From: a virus
Taxonomy: Duplodnaviria; Heunggongvirae; Uroviricota; Caudoviricetes
DNA: 10,240 nucleotides
Virus record (IMG/VR): IMGVR_UViG_2778261087_000006
Reading direction: 5' to 3' (one strand)
A model generated the notes under the pieces. The model worked only from the letters and a program-made list of their open reading frames with translations, had not been told where the DNA came from and did no database searches. Both the position numbers and the translations under genes were made by a program. Below are positions 4,117 through 10,240 of this stretch, piece by piece. Each line of letters opens with the position of its first letter. Positions within the stretch are counted from its first letter, which is position 1.

Positions 4117-4141
4117 AAGCCGCCTCATGGCGGCTTTTTTA
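4117..4141 (+). terminator. Rho-independent terminator downstream of the repressor-like gene
   Basis: 8-bp GC-rich stem AAGCCGCC / GGCGGCTT with loop TCAT, followed by a run of 6-7 T. Lies 22 nt after the stop codon. Confidence 0.7.
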
Positions 4142-4187: not shown

Positions 4188-4216
4188 TTGACATCAAACC
4201 AGATACGCATAATTAT
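4188..4216 (+). promoter_or_regulatory. pL-like promoter for the plus-strand early operon
   Basis: Consensus -35 TTGACA at 4188-4193. Candidate -10 AATTAT at 4211-4216 with 17-bp spacer (CATAAT at 4208-4213 is an alternative). The operator-like site at 4216-4230 overlaps the -10/+1 region. Confidence 0.5.
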
Positions 4217-4249: not shown

Positions 4250-4411
4250 ATGCAGTGGAAAATCATCAACGGTTGGTACTGCGTTACTGCATGCGGATTC
4301 ATGAGCTGGAAGTTCCGCACCTTACAGGAAGGCATTAAGTGGGCTTTCGTCAGCAAAGAAGCTCGCGATGTGGCCAACGATAACGAGATATGGGAGGAGG
4401 TTAGCAAATGA
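4250..4411 (+). CDS. Small ORF, 53 aa, first gene of the pL-like operon (not in the ORF track)
   Basis: ATG at 4250 with GAGG 10 nt upstream. Translated by hand without internal stops: MQWKIINGWYCVTACGFMSWKFRTLQEGIKWAFVSKEARDVANDNEIWEEVSK. Its TGA overlaps the ATG of the next gene (ATGA at 4408-4411). Competes with the opposite-strand track ORF 4216-4407. Confidence 0.4.
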   Translation: MQWKIINGWYCVTACGFMSWKFRTLQEGIKWAFVSKEARDVANDNEIWEEVSK

Positions 4412-5442
4412 GTGAATTATCAATCATCGAAATCACACCAGATATGGCACCAAGAATTTACGTTGAAAAAGGACTGGAAAAGTTTCTCGAGCAGATCCGT
4501 GAAGGTGTTAATGAAGTGCCTGACATTAGCACAGACAAAGGCAGAAAGCGCATTGCATCTCTGGCTGCGAAGGTTTCAAGAAGTAAAACAGCGGTAGAAA
4601 AACCAGGACGTGATTATCTGAAACGCCTGAAAGAACAGCCGAAAGTAGTTGAAGCAGAGTTACGACGCTTCGTAACCGAATGCGATCGGCTTCGTGATGA
4701 AGTACGCCGCCCACTCACCAAGTGGGAAAATGCTGAGAAATTACGCACTGAAGCACTGCAACAACGCCTGACAAATTTGCGAGCACTGGCTGACGTGATC
4801 GATCTCTCCGGAAACTACTTGCCATCAACTGATATTCAGGAACGAATTCAAGAGGCTAAATCAGTAGCACTTGATGAGAGTTGGCAGGAGTACGCAGCAG
4901 AAGCTGGAGTAGCCAAGGATTCAACCATCCAGAAACTGGAAGAATCACTCGCAGTAGCTCAAAAACGCGAGCATGAAGCCGCTGAGCTGGAGAGACTTCG
5001 CAAAGAAGCGGAGGAAAAAGCGCGCATTGAGCGAGAAGAGAATATCCGCCGGGAAGCTGCTGAACAGGCCAGGCTCGAAGCTGAACAAAAAGCGAAAGCT
5101 GAAATTGATGCTGCGGCACGCCTAGCGGCGGAAGAGAAAGCACGTGCTGAAGTAGCAGAACGTCAGCGAATTGAAGCAGAGCAGCGTGCACGACGCGAAA
5201 AAGAAGAAGCCGTTGCCGAGGAACGCCGACGCCAAGAGGAGGCAGAAAAAGCCCGCATTGAAGAACAGAAGCGTATCGCCGACGAAGAAGCGCGCCGAGC
5301 TGCGGATAAAGAGCATCGCCGTACCGTTAACCGCAGAGTAATCGCAGATCTGATAGCCCAAGGCATTCCCGAAGAATTCGCGCAGAAAGCAATGTTGGCT
5401 ATCGCTGGCGGCAAAGTGCAGGACGCGTATATCAAATATTGA
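4408..5442 (+). CDS. Coiled-coil protein, 344 aa, with a long E/A/R/K-rich charged helical repeat region (TolA-like composition only); function unknown
   Basis: Complete ORF with strong RBS GGGAGGAGG 7 nt upstream. C-terminal half is dominated by EAEQ/ARAE/ERRR repeats from a purine-rich DNA stretch (about 4980-5320). Sits in the accessory position just after pL. Confidence 0.8.
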   Translation: MSELSIIEITPDMAPRIYVEKGLEKFLEQIREGVNEVPDISTDKGRKRIASLAAKVSRSKTAVEKPGRDYLKRLKEQPKVVEAELRRFVTECDRLRDEVRRPLTKWENAEKLRTEALQQRLTNLRALADVIDLSGNYLPSTDIQERIQEAKSVALDESWQEYAAEAGVAKDSTIQKLEESLAVAQKREHEAAELERLRKEAEEKARIEREENIRREAAEQARLEAEQKAKAEIDAAARLAAEEKARAEVAERQRIEAEQRARREKEEAVAEERRRQEEAEKARIEEQKRIADEEARRAADKEHRRTVNRRVIADLIAQGIPEEFAQKAMLAIAGGKVQDAYIKY

Positions 5443-5449
5443 GGTGGGT

Positions 5450-5749
5450 ATGAACGTTAATCAGCAGAAAAATCTTCAAAAAATCATGCTGGCATTCGAC
5501 AAGGACTACCGCCTGTCAGAACAGCTATATGACCGACAAGTTGAACTGATTGAGAGTATCCGGCTTCATCAACTGGCATCAACTTTCGACGTTGTAACAG
5601 TTAAAGGCGTTCGCCAGGAAGTACTGGAGGCCGCTAAAGACAGCCCTGAGTTCGAAGAACTAATGGATGCCTACCGGCGCGAGGCAATGGCAATTATCGC
5701 CCGCTGGGATCTGGCTGATCAGATTGATGGGCAGAGGGACGCGGCATGA
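5450..5749 (+). CDS. Small protein, 99 aa, at the Gam position; possible Gam-like host-nuclease inhibitor
   Basis: ATG at 5450 with GAGGTGGG upstream, and the stop overlaps the exonuclease ATG (ATGA at 5746-5749). Weak local resemblance to remembered lambda Gam C-terminus (DSPEFEELMDAYRREAMAIIA versus [21 protein letters not shown]). Sits just upstream of the exonuclease/annealase pair. Confidence 0.6.
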   Translation: MNVNQQKNLQKIMLAFDKDYRLSEQLYDRQVELIESIRLHQLASTFDVVTVKGVRQEVLEAAKDSPEFEELMDAYRREAMAIIARWDLADQIDGQRDAA

Positions 5750-6567
5750 ATCCGGGAATTTATTTCGATATCAGCAACGAGGACTACCACGCCGGTGACG
5801 GCGTGAGTAAGTCGCAGCTAGATATGGTGGCTAAGAACCCTGCCCTTCTGAAATGGGTGAAGGCTGCTCCGGAAGACGAAGAGAAGAAGTCTGCACTGGA
5901 CATGGGTACTGCTCTGCACTGTCTGCTTCTGGAACCTGGAGAGTTTGACAAACGCTTCATCGTTTCACCGAAATTCGATCGTCGGACAAAACAAGGTAAA
6001 GCTGACGAAGAGGCATTTATTCGTGATGTAGCGGATATGGGGATTTCGGTACTTGATGCAGAGCAGTGGCGAAAACTGGAGCTGATGCGTGATAGCGCAA
6101 TGGCTCACCCGGCGGCACGCTGGATGTTGGAAGCACCTGGTTACTGCGAAGCATCAATGTACTGGAACGATGAAGATACGGGTGAGTTGTGCCGAATTCG
6201 TCCAGACAAATGGCTGAACGAGCACAACGTGATCGTCGACGTGAAAAAGGTTGCAGATATGGACCGTTTTGCACGCCACATCGAGGAGTTCCGCTACCAC
6301 GTGCAGGACGCAATGTACCGCGAAGGCGCAATGAGGGTTACTGGTCAGCCACATGGTTTTTTCTTTCTTGCCGTGAGCGAAAGCATTGATTGTGGTCGGT
6401 ATCCGGTACGCGTGTTCGAGCTGGATGCGCCGGATGTCGATGCCGGGCACGCTCTGTTCCGCCGGGATCTGAATACCTATCACGAATGCCGCATCAACGA
6501 TGAATGGGGCGGAGTGGAAATTATTAAACGCCCTGACTGGGCACGTAAACAGGATATGTACGTATGA
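5746..6567 (+). CDS. PD-(D/E)XK-family exonuclease (RecE-catalytic-domain-like; often annotated exodeoxyribonuclease VIII), 273 aa
   Basis: Catalytic-type motif ...CRIRPDKWLNEHNVIVDVKKV... (PD ... D-x-K). RBS AGAGGGA 6 nt upstream. Translationally coupled to the downstream annealase gene (ATGA at 6564-6567). Confidence 0.8.
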   Translation: MNPGIYFDISNEDYHAGDGVSKSQLDMVAKNPALLKWVKAAPEDEEKKSALDMGTALHCLLLEPGEFDKRFIVSPKFDRRTKQGKADEEAFIRDVADMGISVLDAEQWRKLELMRDSAMAHPAARWMLEAPGYCEASMYWNDEDTGELCRIRPDKWLNEHNVIVDVKKVADMDRFARHIEEFRYHVQDAMYREGAMRVTGQPHGFFFLAVSESIDCGRYPVRVFELDAPDVDAGHALFRRDLNTYHECRINDEWGGVEIIKRPDWARKQDMYV

Positions 6568-7445
6568 GCAATGATATCGCAATCACATCACAACCAGGCG
6601 CAACTGTAGGCACTGCTGCGGCAATCTTCAGCCCCGAGGGCATGAATCAACTGGTGCGTTTCGCGGAGTTGATGTCACAAAGCAAAGCGACTGTACCGAA
6701 ACATCTTGAAGGCAAACCTGCCGATTGCCTGGCGGTGACCATGCAGGCGGCACAGTGGGGAATGAACCCGTTCGCCGTGGCGCAGAAAACGCATGTGGTA
6801 AACGGAACGTTAGGCTACGAAGCACAGTTGGTAAACGCGGTCGTATCCTCTTCCAGCCTGCTGGCGACACGCCTGAATTATCGCTGGAGCGGTGACTGGT
6901 CGAATGTTAACGGCAAAACAGATAAATCACCTAATCTGACGGTAACTGTGTCAGCAGTTCTTAAAGGAGAAGCAGAACCACGTGAGCTTACCATCAGTAT
7001 GGCGCAAGCCGGAGTGCGTAACTCTCCATTGTGGGAACAGGATCCGCGCCAGCAGCTTGCCTATCTTTGCACGAAACGATGGGCTCGCCTGCACGCTCCT
7101 GATGTACTTCTCGGTGTTTACACACCAGACGAATTACAGGAAACGGCACCGCGCGTTGAGCGAGACATTACTCCGCAAACGACCACTGCTGCGGGAATGA
7201 ACAGTCTGATCAACGCTAAAACAGTGAAAAAGCCTGATGAGCAAACGCGTAAAGCGGATAGCCGTGATCCAGAAGAAATGCTGATGGCCTTTACCAGCGC
7301 AGCGATGAATTACAGCACTGTCTCCGAACTAGATAAGGCTTACAAATACATTGCACAAAAACTTTCAGATGATGACGAACTACTGGCAAAAGCCACCGAC
7401 GTTTACAGCGTTCGCCGGGAAGAATTAAACGAAACATCTATGTAA
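6564..7445 (+). CDS. RecT/Redbeta-superfamily single-strand annealing protein, 293 aa
   Basis: Paired with the upstream exonuclease. Local resemblance to remembered lambda Bet (...QWGMNPFAVAQKTHVV... versus ...QYGLNPWTKEIYAF...). Exact subfamily not resolved. Confidence 0.75.
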   Translation: MSNDIAITSQPGATVGTAAAIFSPEGMNQLVRFAELMSQSKATVPKHLEGKPADCLAVTMQAAQWGMNPFAVAQKTHVVNGTLGYEAQLVNAVVSSSSLLATRLNYRWSGDWSNVNGKTDKSPNLTVTVSAVLKGEAEPRELTISMAQAGVRNSPLWEQDPRQQLAYLCTKRWARLHAPDVLLGVYTPDELQETAPRVERDITPQTTTAAGMNSLINAKTVKKPDEQTRKADSRDPEEMLMAFTSAAMNYSTVSELDKAYKYIAQKLSDDDELLAKATDVYSVRREELNETSM

Positions 7446-7452
7446 CCACCAC

Positions 7453-7472
7453 CGCGGCGCAACGCGCGCCGC
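7453..7472 (+). other. GC-rich hairpin between the annealase and AlpA-like genes
   Basis: Stem GCGGCGC / GCGCCGC (7 bp) around loop AACGC (7454-7472). No U-tract follows, so it is not a canonical intrinsic terminator. Confidence 0.3.
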
Positions 7473-7494
7473 ACTGCAACCAAGAGAGGTATTT

Positions 7495-7743
7495 ATGAAA
7501 GGTGCATTAGGTAAGAAGGAACTCCTGGCGGTGGTGCCACTGTCATGGAGCACTATCGACCGTATGGAGCGCGCAGGTGAATTTCCTAAACGCTGGTATA
7601 TCACTGACAAACGCTGCGCATGGAACCGTGACGAAGTTGAGCGTTGGCTTGATGAACGTCAGGCAGCAAGCCCGGCAGAGTTCCAAGGTAAAAAACCTCC
7701 TGTTCAGCAACGTGTATATCGTCCTGTGAGCAACGCTGCATGA
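7495..7743 (+). CDS. alpA: AlpA-family DNA-binding protein (excisionase/transcriptional-regulator-like), 82 aa
   Basis: Typical AlpA/Xis-like signature ...LLAVVPLSWSTIDRMERAGEFPKRWYITDKRCAWNRDEVERWL.... RBS AGAGAGG 5 nt upstream of the ATG. Confidence 0.8.
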   Translation: MKGALGKKELLAVVPLSWSTIDRMERAGEFPKRWYITDKRCAWNRDEVERWLDERQAASPAEFQGKKPPVQQRVYRPVSNAA

Positions 7744-7852
7744 GTGTGCTGCTAAGGCACTTGAGCAAATGGTCATGATGGTACTTATTCCTGGCCTCTG
7801 TTTCAGCATGGCTTTATCTGCTGGCATTAATTTTCAGAGAGGGTTGGATTAA

Positions 7853-8152
7853 GTGAGAAAGTTAAGCCGACTTGAAAAATATCACATGAACAAAGTTTCA
7901 ATGCGCAGCCATTCAAAGGTTGTTGCCGTTACTCCTGCGGCGATAGAGATCGAAAAACGCGCGATTGAAAGAGAGAAAAAAGGGCGGTTCCGCATTGCCG
8001 CCCACCTTTGGCTTCAGTGTATGGATGTTGCTTCTGGTGATGTTGAGCGTGCAAGGATCGCGGTTCGCAGGGACCAATGTATCACAAAAGGTAACGGCCT
8101 TCGCCGTGGCGACTATAGCGGCATAGGATGTTGTGGGGTGGTTTATGACTAA
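7853..8152 (+). CDS. Hypothetical protein, up to 99 aa, upstream of and overlapping the methyltransferase gene
   Basis: GTG at 7853 with GAGAGGG 9 nt upstream, and alternative ATGs at 7886 and 7901. Stop TAA at 8150-8152 overlaps the methyltransferase ATG at 8145 by 8 nt. No family recognised. Confidence 0.55.
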   Translation: MRKLSRLEKYHMNKVSMRSHSKVVAVTPAAIEIEKRAIEREKKGRFRIAAHLWLQCMDVASGDVERARIAVRRDQCITKGNGLRRGDYSGIGCCGVVYD

Positions 8153-8795
8153 GAAATACACACTAATCTATGCAGATCCACCTTGGGTATACCGGGACAA
8201 AGCCGCAGATGGTAATCGCGGTGCCGGTTTTAAATATCCGGTTATGAGTGTGCTGGATATCTGCCGCCTTCCTGTGTGGGATTTGGCCGATGAAAACTGT
8301 CTGTTGGCCATGTGGTGGGTGCCAACACAACCACTCGAAGCACTAAAAGTTGTTGAAGCCTGGGGATTCCGTCTGATGACCATGAAGGGCTTCACGTGGA
8401 TAAAATGTGGTAGTCGACAACCAGATAAACTGGTTATGGGTATGGGACACATGACTCGCGCCAATAGTGAAGATTGCCTGTTTGCAGTAAAGGGAAAACT
8501 ACCTACGCGCATTAATGCAGGGATCGTTCAGTCATTTACCGCACCGCGGCTTGAGCATTCAAGAAAACCAGATATCGTTCGTGAAAAACTTGTGCAATTG
8601 TTAGGCGATGTTTCTCGCATTGAACTGTTCGCCCGCCAGTCGTCTCATGGTTTCGATGTTTGGGGTAATCAGTGCGAAGACCCGGCAGTGCAACTACACC
8701 CTGGATACGCGTTGGATATTGCCAGATTAACAAATGCATTCAGCAATGCTCCGCTGTCACCAACAGACAACCAGGGGCGGGAGCGTGCAGCATGA
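8145..8795 (+). CDS. MT-A70-family DNA N6-adenine methyltransferase, 216 aa
   Basis: N-terminal MTKKYTLIYADPPW carries the DPPW catalytic motif typical of MT-A70 phage methylases. The track ORF begins at an upstream GTG (8133); ATG 8145 is preferred, with GGTGG/GGGG just upstream. Confidence 0.85.
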   Translation: MTKKYTLIYADPPWVYRDKAADGNRGAGFKYPVMSVLDICRLPVWDLADENCLLAMWWVPTQPLEALKVVEAWGFRLMTMKGFTWIKCGSRQPDKLVMGMGHMTRANSEDCLFAVKGKLPTRINAGIVQSFTAPRLEHSRKPDIVREKLVQLLGDVSRIELFARQSSHGFDVWGNQCEDPAVQLHPGYALDIARLTNAFSNAPLSPTDNQGRERAA

Positions 8796-8986
8796 ACAGG
8801 GCATCACCAGCAGATTTAAGGAAATGCCTTGAAACTGCAAACATGCTTGCACACAGCGGGATCAGGTTTGTTCCAATTCCCGCTGTCACTGATGCTGAAT
8901 TTGCAACACTGTCAGCAATATTCACAGATAAAATTGAATCACTGGCAGCAGAAGCCGAGATGGAAGAAAATCAGCAGAATAATTAA
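8792..8986 (+). CDS. Hypothetical small protein, 64 aa, translationally coupled to the methyltransferase
   Basis: In-frame ATG at 8792 inside track ORF 8672-8986, and it overlaps the methyltransferase TGA stop (ATGA at 8792-8795). Ends 3 bp from the integrase stop on the opposite strand. Confidence 0.5.
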   Translation: MNRASPADLRKCLETANMLAHSGIRFVPIPAVTDAEFATLSAIFTDKIESLAAEAEMEENQQNN

Positions 8987-8989
8987 ACG

Positions 8990-10240
8990 TTATTCCCCCG
9001 CCATCCACTTCTCAAACTTCGACGGGGAGAACGGAATCAGATCCGTATGCTCCCCGTTAATCCAGGAATCAATCATATCGGCCCACTGCTGCAACATGTA
9101 GGCGCGCTGTCTGGCGTATTCCGCTTTGTTATATACGGCGCGCACACCTTTCTGCTCATGTGCCAGAGCCTTTTCAATCCAGTCTGAAGGATAACCAGCC
9201 TCATGCAACAACGTACTGGCTGTACGGCGCATATCGTGTACGGTGAAATCCTGAATATGCTCACCATCTTCATTTATTATTTTCACCGTTCTGTCGATCA
9301 GAGAGTTCAGCGCGGCATTAGATAATGGCTTCCGGAAATTGTAACGACCAGGAACCAGATATTCATTTCCACCAGCGCACATCTGCAACCCGACCAATAT
9401 ATCCTGAGCCTGTTTAGGCAGGTAAATAACATGCGCCCGGCTTCCCTTCATGCGGTCTGAAGGAATTGTCCATGTCCATTTTTTAAAATCTATTTCATCC
9501 CACGTTGCATTGGTGAATTCGCCCTTACGAACCATAGTGATAAGCACCAGTTTTAAAGCCATTTTCATAGTGCCCATAGCACCAATGGCATCCAACGTGC
9601 GGAAGAACAGGCCAATTTCTTCTGGTGTCAGTGTTCGCTCTCGTGGTTTAAATATGGCGATAGACGAAGGCTTAATGTCAGCCGCAGGATTAAACAAACC
9701 ATGACCACGGTCATTGGCGTGACGGTATACGCTGCTGATGATCTCCCTGGCCTGCACTGCTGTTGCCCGGCCACCGCGTTCGACAATCCGGTCACACAAA
9801 TCACGAACCATCGATGTGGTAATTTCAGCCATCATTTTGTTGCCAAGAACCGGAAGTATGTCACGGTCGATCACTGCCTGCTTCATTGCGCGGGTACTTT
9901 CAGCCAGGATGACGTGTTTCATATAACTGTCGGTATGTACCGCAAACGTTTCGGCACCACGAATCTTTTTGATGCCGTCACGTTTAGCAGCAGCCGGTGA
10001 CTGGCCTGCTTTAAGCAGCTTCTTTGCAGCAATCAGTTCTTCTCGCGCTTCTGCCAGGCTGATACCGTCACGCCCATACTGCCCGATTACCAGTGTTTCG
10101 CGGCGACCGTTGATACGGTAGTCATAGCGAAACGAGACCGTACCTGACGTAAGCACAGCTACATACAGCCCGTCACGATCGGAGACCTTGTACAGTTTGT
10201 CCTGCGGCTTGAGGTTTTTTAATTTTGTATCGGTAAGCAC
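8990..10240 (-). CDS. int: Tyrosine recombinase / phage integrase (P4-type, N-terminal arm-binding domain), 416 aa
   Basis: N-terminus MLTDTKLKNLKPQDKLYKVSDRDGLYVAV... aligns with remembered P4-family integrase N-termini, and the catalytic-domain Y/R/H signature lies toward the C-terminus (...HDMRRTASTLLHEAGY...). First codon is GTG exactly at the window edge (10240-10238), so the upstream RBS and att site are not visible. Confidence 0.9.
   Translation of the reverse strand: MLTDTKLKNLKPQDKLYKVSDRDGLYVAVLTSGTVSFRYDYRINGRRETLVIGQYGRDGISLAEAREELIAAKKLLKAGQSPAAAKRDGIKKIRGAETFAVHTDSYMKHVILAESTRAMKQAVIDRDILPVLGNKMMAEITTSMVRDLCDRIVERGGRATAVQAREIISSVYRHANDRGHGLFNPAADIKPSSIAIFKPRERTLTPEEIGLFFRTLDAIGAMGTMKMALKLVLITMVRKGEFTNATWDEIDFKKWTWTIPSDRMKGSRAHVIYLPKQAQDILVGLQMCAGGNEYLVPGRYNFRKPLSNAALNSLIDRTVKIINEDGEHIQDFTVHDMRRTASTLLHEAGYPSDWIEKALAHEQKGVRAVYNKAEYARQRAYMLQQWADMIDSWINGEHTDLIPFSPSKFEKWMAGE

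Follow-up and report, generated by a model that had tools for sequence, protein, structure and literature searches.

The usual role of the orphan methylases of phages is anti-restriction by adenine methylation. In the window analysed here, a stretch of 10,240 nucleotides from a Caudoviricetes virus (IMG/VR record IMGVR_UViG_2778261087_000006), a gene of this kind overlaps a small gene on either side, and the resulting three-gene cassette abuts an integrase gene. The original prediction described this coupling as obligate and atypical, and suggested that the small proteins could be specificity or regulatory partners or a toxin/antitoxin-like pair. Do such tight overlaps betray a dedicated three-protein unit, or are they the ordinary junctions of a phage operon? 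Our analysis favours the second answer. Positions 7853–8986 are probably the distal accessory part of the one early-left operon in a temperate phage of the phiV10/epsilon15 type (Uetakevirus) that is integrated in Escherichia coli, and the three genes there can be exchanged separately. This reading is directly supported by the identity of the window to a known phage, the family assignments of the three proteins, the presence of overlaps throughout the operon, the exchange of neighbouring genes among related loci, and the lack of promoter or terminator matches inside the operon.

Architecture of the locus

The overlapping geometry of the three ORFs was confirmed from the ORF list and the sequence, with overlaps of 8 nt and of ATGA. 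All three are real genes rather than chance ORFs, because each has a strong family-profile match. The features of the locus are as follows.

4188–4216, plus strand: sigma-70-like promoter TTGACA-17-AATTAT, a consensus match only, just after a terminator-like hairpin at 4117–4136
7495–7743, plus strand: AlpA-family regulator/excisionase-like gene (PF05930, E 3e-5; phrog_66, E 2e-16), equivalent to phiV10 p36, upstream in the same operon
7740–7856, plus strand: remnant of a 38-aa membrane-protein gene, equivalent to phiV10 p35 and epsilon15 gp32
7853–8152, plus strand: PerC-family gene, GTG start, 99 aa (PF06069, phrog_868)
8145–8152, plus strand: 8-nt overlap ATGACTAA, with the methylase start inside the PerC stop; a conserved mosaic junction
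8145–8795, plus strand: MT-A70 methylase gene, ATG at 8145, 216 aa (PF05063)
8792–8986, plus strand: DUF1382 gene, 64 aa, with its start within the ATGA that holds the methylase stop (PF07131)
8990–10240, minus strand: P4-type tyrosine integrase gene (PF13356, PF22022, PF00589), equivalent to phiV10 p31

The 8-nt overlap between the PerC and methylase genes (8145–8152) reads ...GGTTTATGACTAA. At the other end of the cassette, 3 bp (8987–8989) separate the convergent stop codons of the DUF1382 and integrase genes; the three profile matches and the phiV10 counterpart of the latter agree with its earlier designation as an integrase. Upstream, the small membrane-protein gene has degenerated: alignment with phiV10, epsilon15 and Tyrion revealed a G-to-T change at 7776 that creates a TGA after codon 12.

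The plus-strand operon extends from 4250 to 8986, with successive junction gaps of −4, +1, −4, −4, +49, +31, 0, −8 and −4. The promoter-like site at 4188–4216 is the probable start of this early-left operon, whose end is the cassette. Consensus-match scans revealed no further plus-strand promoter-like or terminator-like site from 4400 to 10240.

An orphan methylase and two small proteins of known families

The designation of the central gene as an MT-A70 adenine methyltransferase proved correct. Its product matches the full PF05063 profile (79.7 bits against a cutoff of 23.9, E 3e-22; residues 5–176 on profile positions 1–172 of 172) and is a minimal MT-A70 domain, with the catalytic motif IV DPPW at residues 11–14 (...LIYADPPWVY..., residues 7–16). 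In an alignment of 13 methylase homologs, P12, P13 and W14 were invariant and D11 nearly so. PADLOC matched the protein to generic type II methyltransferase models only (E 2e-77). Its closest solved relatives were the MT-A70 family chains 7F4R and 7F4L (E about 4e-13), which we take to be chains of a ciliate DNA 6mA enzyme, and METTL3 (E 5e-6). On sequence, the protein is an orphan beta-class N6-adenine methyltransferase of the MT-A70 family. Our literature search found no study of the phiV10 (p33) or epsilon15 methylase, its biochemistry, its methylome or its target motif.

Like the window methylase, M.EcoGII is a prophage-borne orphan beta-class adenine methyltransferase; it is silent in the lysogen and has been proposed to act in lytic growth (PMC5778455, PMC7544214). 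M.EcoGII is non-specific, and its 349 residues include a DPPY motif and a central target-recognition domain (PMC5778455). On this description we rejected it as a close relative of the 216-aa DPPW enzyme, and its non-specificity cannot be transferred to the window methylase.

The two flanking proteins, both of which had been listed as unknown, could each be assigned to a family. The 99-aa upstream protein belongs to the PerC family (PF06069; 29.7 bits against a cutoff of 22.6, E 8e-7, covering profile positions 5–50 of 90) and matches phrog_868, 'transcriptional activator' (E 7e-61); it has the core motif R[RI]AA..W...RR..C in common with homologs from SfV, Lonsdalea and an N4-like phage. Its true start is likely the GTG at 7853 rather than the ATG at 7886, because residues 1–17 are kept in homologs (H11 and R18 nearly invariant) and because the equivalent start in epsilon15 is an ATG within an ATGA overlap with the preceding gene.

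The AF2 model of the PerC-like protein has four helices (mean pLDDT 72), among which there is no helix-turn-helix, and a C-terminal tail with pLDDT below 50. This disordered tail is nonetheless conserved (YSGI...GVVYD), and its YSG motif is common to PerC-like proteins that adjoin MT-A70. A fold search with the model against the PDB gave no significant match, the best being MIT/TPR-like bundles at E of at least 0.38, and no solved relative of the protein was found. In NCBIfam the sole match was to the ANR family, below threshold (23.1 bits against a cutoff of 32), and a word-indexed search reached only the protein's own subfamily, at identities of at least 56%. Transcriptional activation, for example of LEE1/ler by PerC and PchABC, is established for distant family members (PMC7369912, PMC5931665); the window protein may be a small protein-binding or nucleoid-modulating regulator.

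The 64-aa downstream protein is a DUF1382 protein (PF07131; 105.7 bits against a cutoff of 27, E 1.4e-30, positions 1–60 of 60) and a homolog of lambda Orf63. Its residues 2–62 match PDB 8DSB (E 5.8e-13), the lambda Orf63/DUF1382 structure; lambda Orf63 is an exo-xis region protein with a dimeric helical fold and promotes lytic development (PMC10869804). By analogy, the window protein may act on the lysis–lysogeny balance as lambda Orf63 does.

The cassette is a common, annotated prophage segment

The window is approximately 98% identical to Escherichia phage phiV10 (Uetakevirus). Across positions 7700–9100, nucleotide identity reached 98–99% with phiV10, TL-2011b, O157 typing phages 9 and 10 and others; besides phiV10, more than a dozen sister phages of this epsilon15-like genus matched the segment. 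The phiV10 gene order is RecT, an AlpA-family regulator, a 38-aa membrane protein, p34-p33-p32 and then the convergent integrase, so that the three genes, their overlaps, the convergent integrase and the flanking AlpA and RecT genes are arranged identically in the two. The phiV10 record already names p34 a PerC-type transcriptional activator, p33 a DNA methyltransferase and p32 a DUF1382 protein. The window differs from phiV10 in the nonsense change that interrupts its upstream membrane-protein gene and in having PDDEXK-nuclease and RecT as separate ORFs, where phiV10 annotates one fused CDS.

Other members of the genus place the window in the same setting. It contains the components of the Uetakevirus early-left operon (repressor, recombination genes, AlpA, small membrane protein, PerC, methylase and convergent integrase), and epsilon15, Tyrion and BUCT711 have the same gene order, with insertions. 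The 1134-bp cassette was carried by 539 of 5426 complete E. coli genomes, in which RefSeq/PGAP names its products 'PerC family transcriptional regulator', 'MT-A70 family methyltransferase' and 'DUF1382 family protein'. The element is thus no novelty: it is an annotated and common prophage segment of ordinary arrangement.

Neighbours of the methylase are exchanged

The proposed coupling of the methylase to both small ORFs carries an expectation of conservation, and the comparison of related loci went against it. Loci with methylase homologs were gathered, 80 of them viral and 50 genomic at species level; the three window proteins served as queries in iterative searches of their ORFs, which were also compared with Pfam. 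Of the 64 close relatives, defined by a methylase identity of at least 95%, 45 had both PerC and DUF1382 genes, 16 had a 219-aa Ser/Thr phosphatase gene in place of DUF1382, and 3 had other ORFs there; among the E. coli genomes sampled, roughly one in three had DUF1382 replaced. At the species level, DUF1382 was found in 0 of 44 methylase loci, and PerC was detectable in 12 of the 44 and in none of the remaining 32.

The identity of the adjacent genes varied as well. Immediately upstream of the methylase, 64 diverse loci had DUF1317 (13), PerC (6), NinB (3), DUF1382 (3) or various others, and the 42 ORFs scanned immediately downstream comprised RusA (6), DUF1382 (1), phosphatase (1) and others. 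Many lambdoid prophages carry the methylase in the nin region (NinB, MT-A70, NinD or NinE) or alone, without PerC or DUF1382, and other ORFs separate PerC from the methylase in epsilon15, Tyrion and Klebsiella phages. The flanking ORFs are absent or unconserved in homologous methylase loci in the case of DUF1382, and largely so in the case of PerC; obligate coupling to the two is not supported.

Overlaps are ordinary operon junctions and mosaic boundaries

Nor is the tight coupling atypical: overlaps run through the whole operon (4250–8986) and flank most methylase homologs. Junction statistics were drawn from 65 diverse methylase-homolog loci, 57 of which had an ORF ending near the methylase start, with 63 available for the downstream side. 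Upstream, the ORF overlapped or abutted the methylase start in 52 of 57 loci, the commonest gap being −4 (26 loci); downstream, overlap or abutment occurred in 35 of 63. Overlaps of −4, −1 or −8 nt were usual on both sides, whatever the neighbour. The 8-nt and ATGA overlaps are ordinary translational-coupling junctions of a phage operon and no sign of a three-protein complex. Tight overlaps are normal phage operon architecture, and the locus itself adds nothing new.

The junction sequences further illustrate how genes have been exchanged. At the PerC end, GGGGTG(G/A)T(T/C/G)TATGACTAA was unchanged before the methylase (MTKKYTLI) or before a DUF1317-type ORF (MTNPHD...), which takes the place of the methylase in the Klebsiella phages BUCT711 and ST512-KPC3phi13.3, in epsilon15 and in Tyrion. 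At the methylase end, the junction GCAGCATGAA was unchanged whether DUF1382, a phosphatase or another ORF came next; in PAS61, a NinI-type phosphatase gene replaces the DUF1382 gene at precisely this GCAGCATGAA site. These sequences stay constant despite different next genes, and the overlaps are therefore mosaic boundaries too.

PerC-family genes recur upstream of adenine methylases

The alternative that survives best, although we consider it improbable, is that the PerC-like protein is a dedicated partner of the methylase (a regulator of its expression or activity, a targeting adaptor or a reader of its mark), the two genes forming a mobile module in which DUF1382 is unrelated cargo. The pairing does recur elsewhere. 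A Lonsdalea lambdoid nin region has the order P, PerC (74 aa), MT-A70 and RusA, with PerC overlapping MT-A70 by 8 nt; an Acerihabitans lambdoid prophage has a replication gene, PerC, MT-A70 (4-nt overlap), an unknown ORF and RusA; and in Buttiauxella a wHTH-PerC gene (152–170 aa) is followed by MT-A70 and then by a LexA-like gene. In SfV, 1720a-02, ST64B and an Stx2k phage, with a Buttiauxella-type backbone, the series is a YfdN-like PerC gene, a PF05869 Dam gene and a LexA-like gene. The YSG motif in the otherwise disordered tail of PerC-like proteins adjoining MT-A70 is also consistent with partnership, as is the existence of a natural, if rare, in-frame PerC–methylase fusion (P0005).

A close parallel comes from yfdN, the K-12 PerC homologue (PMC5931665). 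In yfdN–yfdM of the K-12 prophage CPS-53, SfV orf40–dam and ST64B sb43–sb44, as in the window, a PerC-family gene lies directly upstream of an N6-adenine methyltransferase gene, with stop and start abutting or overlapping. The methylase of these pairs is PF05869 Dam, not MT-A70, and BLASTP detected no similarity between it and the window enzyme (E 0.8); the yfdN-type PerC is longer (162–174 aa), and its N terminus matches a MarR-type winged helix only weakly, below threshold; and the pair is located in the early-right (nin) region. The yfdN–yfdM pair was present at a coverage of at least 80% in 1639 of 5426 E. coli genomes.

Other observations argue against a dedicated partnership. In addition to the 32 species-level loci in which PerC was not detectable, and the methylase homologs that sit in nin regions or alone without it, yfdN is followed immediately by the LexA-like gene, without a methylase, in some E. 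coli genomes, and no methylase is annotated among the neighbours of the PerC homolog of an N4-like phage. Even in Uetakevirus, PerC and the methylase are often not adjacent, having one to three further ORFs between them. An exhaustive PerC-profile search yielded 64 representatives with no recurrent methylase fusion, all but two of them 153 aa or shorter; the two long proteins matched by the profile are multi-repeat proteins. The lambdoid cases may, moreover, all stem from one ancestral nin-region arrangement.

Two further proposals of physical linkage were rejected. A programmed PerC–methylase frameshift does not account for P0005, which arose from a 1-nt deletion, has 3 member sequences and lacks a conserved slippery site. 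Longer methylase homologs are not PerC fusions, as the extra sequence lies mostly at the C terminus and a PerC domain is absent from all of them.

The link between PerC and the methylase is facultative. PerC nevertheless immediately precedes adenine methylases at a higher frequency than simple synteny would account for, and 'fully independent genes' may be too strong a description of the pair because the adjacency recurs across backbones and methylase families. We doubt, but think it worth stating, that PerC-family proteins, including EPEC/EHEC PerC and Pch, are ancestral partners of phage orphan adenine methyltransferases. If they were, PerC could control methylase expression or activity or couple transcription to methylation state, and PerC–MT-A70 and yfdN–yfdM would represent the same unrecognised two-gene module in two forms, with a methylase that is replaceable by one of an unrelated family. 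A functional pairing would give biochemists a first point of entry to the PerC/Pch regulators, a poorly understood family, and would bear on how phages restrain potentially toxic orphan methylases. The comparative point, that PerC is found upstream of two methylase families in two phage operon contexts, is worth keeping.

Other readings of the cassette

Far less probable is that the MT-A70 enzyme methylates RNA (m6A) rather than DNA and so modulates host or phage transcripts. METTL3 is among its closest solved relatives, and some sources label its homologs 'N6-adenosine-specific RNA methylase IME4'. These labels, however, come from automatic COG transfer, and the strongest match among solved structures (E about 4e-13) was to chains whose deposited name is 'MT-a70 family protein'. 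A review derives the MT-A70 clade itself from a group prototyped by prokaryotic restriction–modification DNA methyltransferases such as M.MunI and M.MboII (PMC4738411).

The suggestion that the two small ORFs are a toxin–antitoxin-like or addiction pair riding with the methylase now carries very little weight. The genes are small and tightly overlapping, and promiscuous phage methylases such as M.EcoGII can be toxic when overexpressed (PMC5778455). The PerC-like and DUF1382 genes, however, are not adjacent to each other, since the methylase lies between them, and neither product matches a toxin–antitoxin or defence family in Pfam, NCBIfam or PADLOC. The DUF1382 protein is a lambda Orf63 homolog whose gene was swapped in 19 of the 64 close relatives with the other two genes unchanged, and P0239, a deletion variant, lacks the methylase altogether and has PerC fused to DUF1382.

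We likewise give almost no credence to the cassette being a restriction–modification remnant with the upstream small gene as its controller (C) protein, a layout that a small regulator gene before a methylase does resemble and to which the PADLOC type II models (E 2e-77) could be taken to point: neither the window nor any related locus examined has a nuclease ORF next to the methylase (the neighbours are PerC, DUF1317, NinB, RusA, DUF1382 and phosphatase), PerC does not belong to the Xre-type helix-turn-helix C proteins and its model is a helical bundle with weak MIT/TPR-like matches, and the cassette genes lie inside a long phage operon.

A model for expression of the accessory end

With the cassette read as the accessory end of an early-left operon, we infer when it is expressed, that the methylase counters restriction and what it targets, and how the PerC-like protein and the Orf63 homolog act. 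Transcription of the operon would probably begin at the promoter-like site near 4200 once induction or infection has occurred, and ribosomes would be coupled from gene to gene at the overlaps, so that the methylase would probably be made only then. The enzyme would probably methylate adenines of replicating phage DNA and so blunt host restriction. Anti-restriction has also been offered as the reason why prophages keep silent methylases, M.EcoGII among them (PMC5778455). On the precedent of lambda and Phi24B, the DUF1382 protein may bias the lysis–lysogeny decision. The overlaps double as recombination boundaries for module swapping. As there is no terminator-like site between the operon and the convergent integrase gene, read-through would, speculatively, yield antisense int RNA.

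The position of the cassette, between the recombination genes and xis/int, corresponds to that of the lambda exo-xis region. Like the cassette, the exo-xis region of lambda and Stx phages (orf60a, orf61, orf63, orf73, ea22 and ea8.5) lies in the early-left operon and consists of small, non-essential, exchangeable genes that include an Orf63 (DUF1382) homolog. The two differ in that the lambda region has neither a methylase nor a PerC gene, and that int is co-directional in lambda but convergent in the window. An intermediate arrangement is found in the Stx2 phage TL-2011c, in which an MT-A70 gene 83% identical to that of the window is followed by DUF1382 inside the exo-xis region.

Gene boundaries and neighbourhoods of the PerC–methylase cassette

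Comparison of the window with five related loci (L002, L003 and L005–L007) revealed that both internal junctions of the cassette, …GGGGTGRTTTATGACTAA at the methylase start (8145–8152) and …GCAGCATGAA at its end (8792–8795), are kept though the downstream gene differs. Because these boundary sequences are constant while the genes behind them vary, modules are swapped precisely where the stop and start codons overlap.

PerC-family proteins also directly abut methyltransferases of another type, PF05869 Dam, in the following loci:

L144 (SfV), 1704–2845, PerC-family gene and PF05869 Dam
L146 (ST64B), L145 and L147, the same pair
E. coli yfdN–yfdM, the same pair

The Dam-adjoining PerC-family proteins are longer (162–174 aa) and match a MarR-type profile weakly in their N-terminal part, and the gene order in these loci is PerC-family, PF05869 Dam, LexA-DNA-binding-like gene and RusA. 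Two Buttiauxella prophages (L104 and L105) share this backbone, but their methylase slot is filled by MT-A70. In Brenneria and Lonsdalea prophages, a small Cys-rich ORF of 65–67 aa lies immediately upstream of the methylase:

L099, 2792–2992, small Cys-rich ORF
L103, 2798–2992, small Cys-rich ORF

Judging from its sequence, we would guess that this ORF encodes a TraR/DksA-type zinc finger, as in lambda Orf73.

The PerC core as a possible repeat

Profile positions of about 33–79, the PerC core, were matched in 11 tandem stretches of one 923-aa representative (P0249) and in five of another of 428 aa (P0258). These tandem matches suggest that the core is a repeat-type helical hairpin (TPR/Sel1-like), consistent with the weak MIT/TPR fold matches.

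The early operon around the cassette

Four further plus-strand features of the operon were compared or noted:

4408–5442, 344-aa ORF, second gene of the operon
5746–6567, PDDEXK nuclease (DUF3799) ORF
6564–7445, RecT ORF
7740–7856, homolog of phiV10 p35 and epsilon15 gp32, which encode a 38-aa membrane protein

The window copy of the membrane-protein gene is interrupted after codon 12 by a TGA that arises from a G-to-T change at 7776; phiV10, epsilon15 and Tyrion have intact copies. The nuclease and RecT are two ATGA-coupled ORFs, in contrast to the single fused RecE–RecT CDS annotated in the phiV10 reference. No terminator-like structure was found between the operon end and the convergent integrase (8986–8990), an interval that in epsilon15 spans about 150 bp with annotated RNase III sites; read-through from the early operon into the integrase would yield antisense int RNA. 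The centre of the 344-aa ORF is highly charged, with abundant Glu, Arg, Ala and Lys that form runs like AEEKAR and EAEQ.
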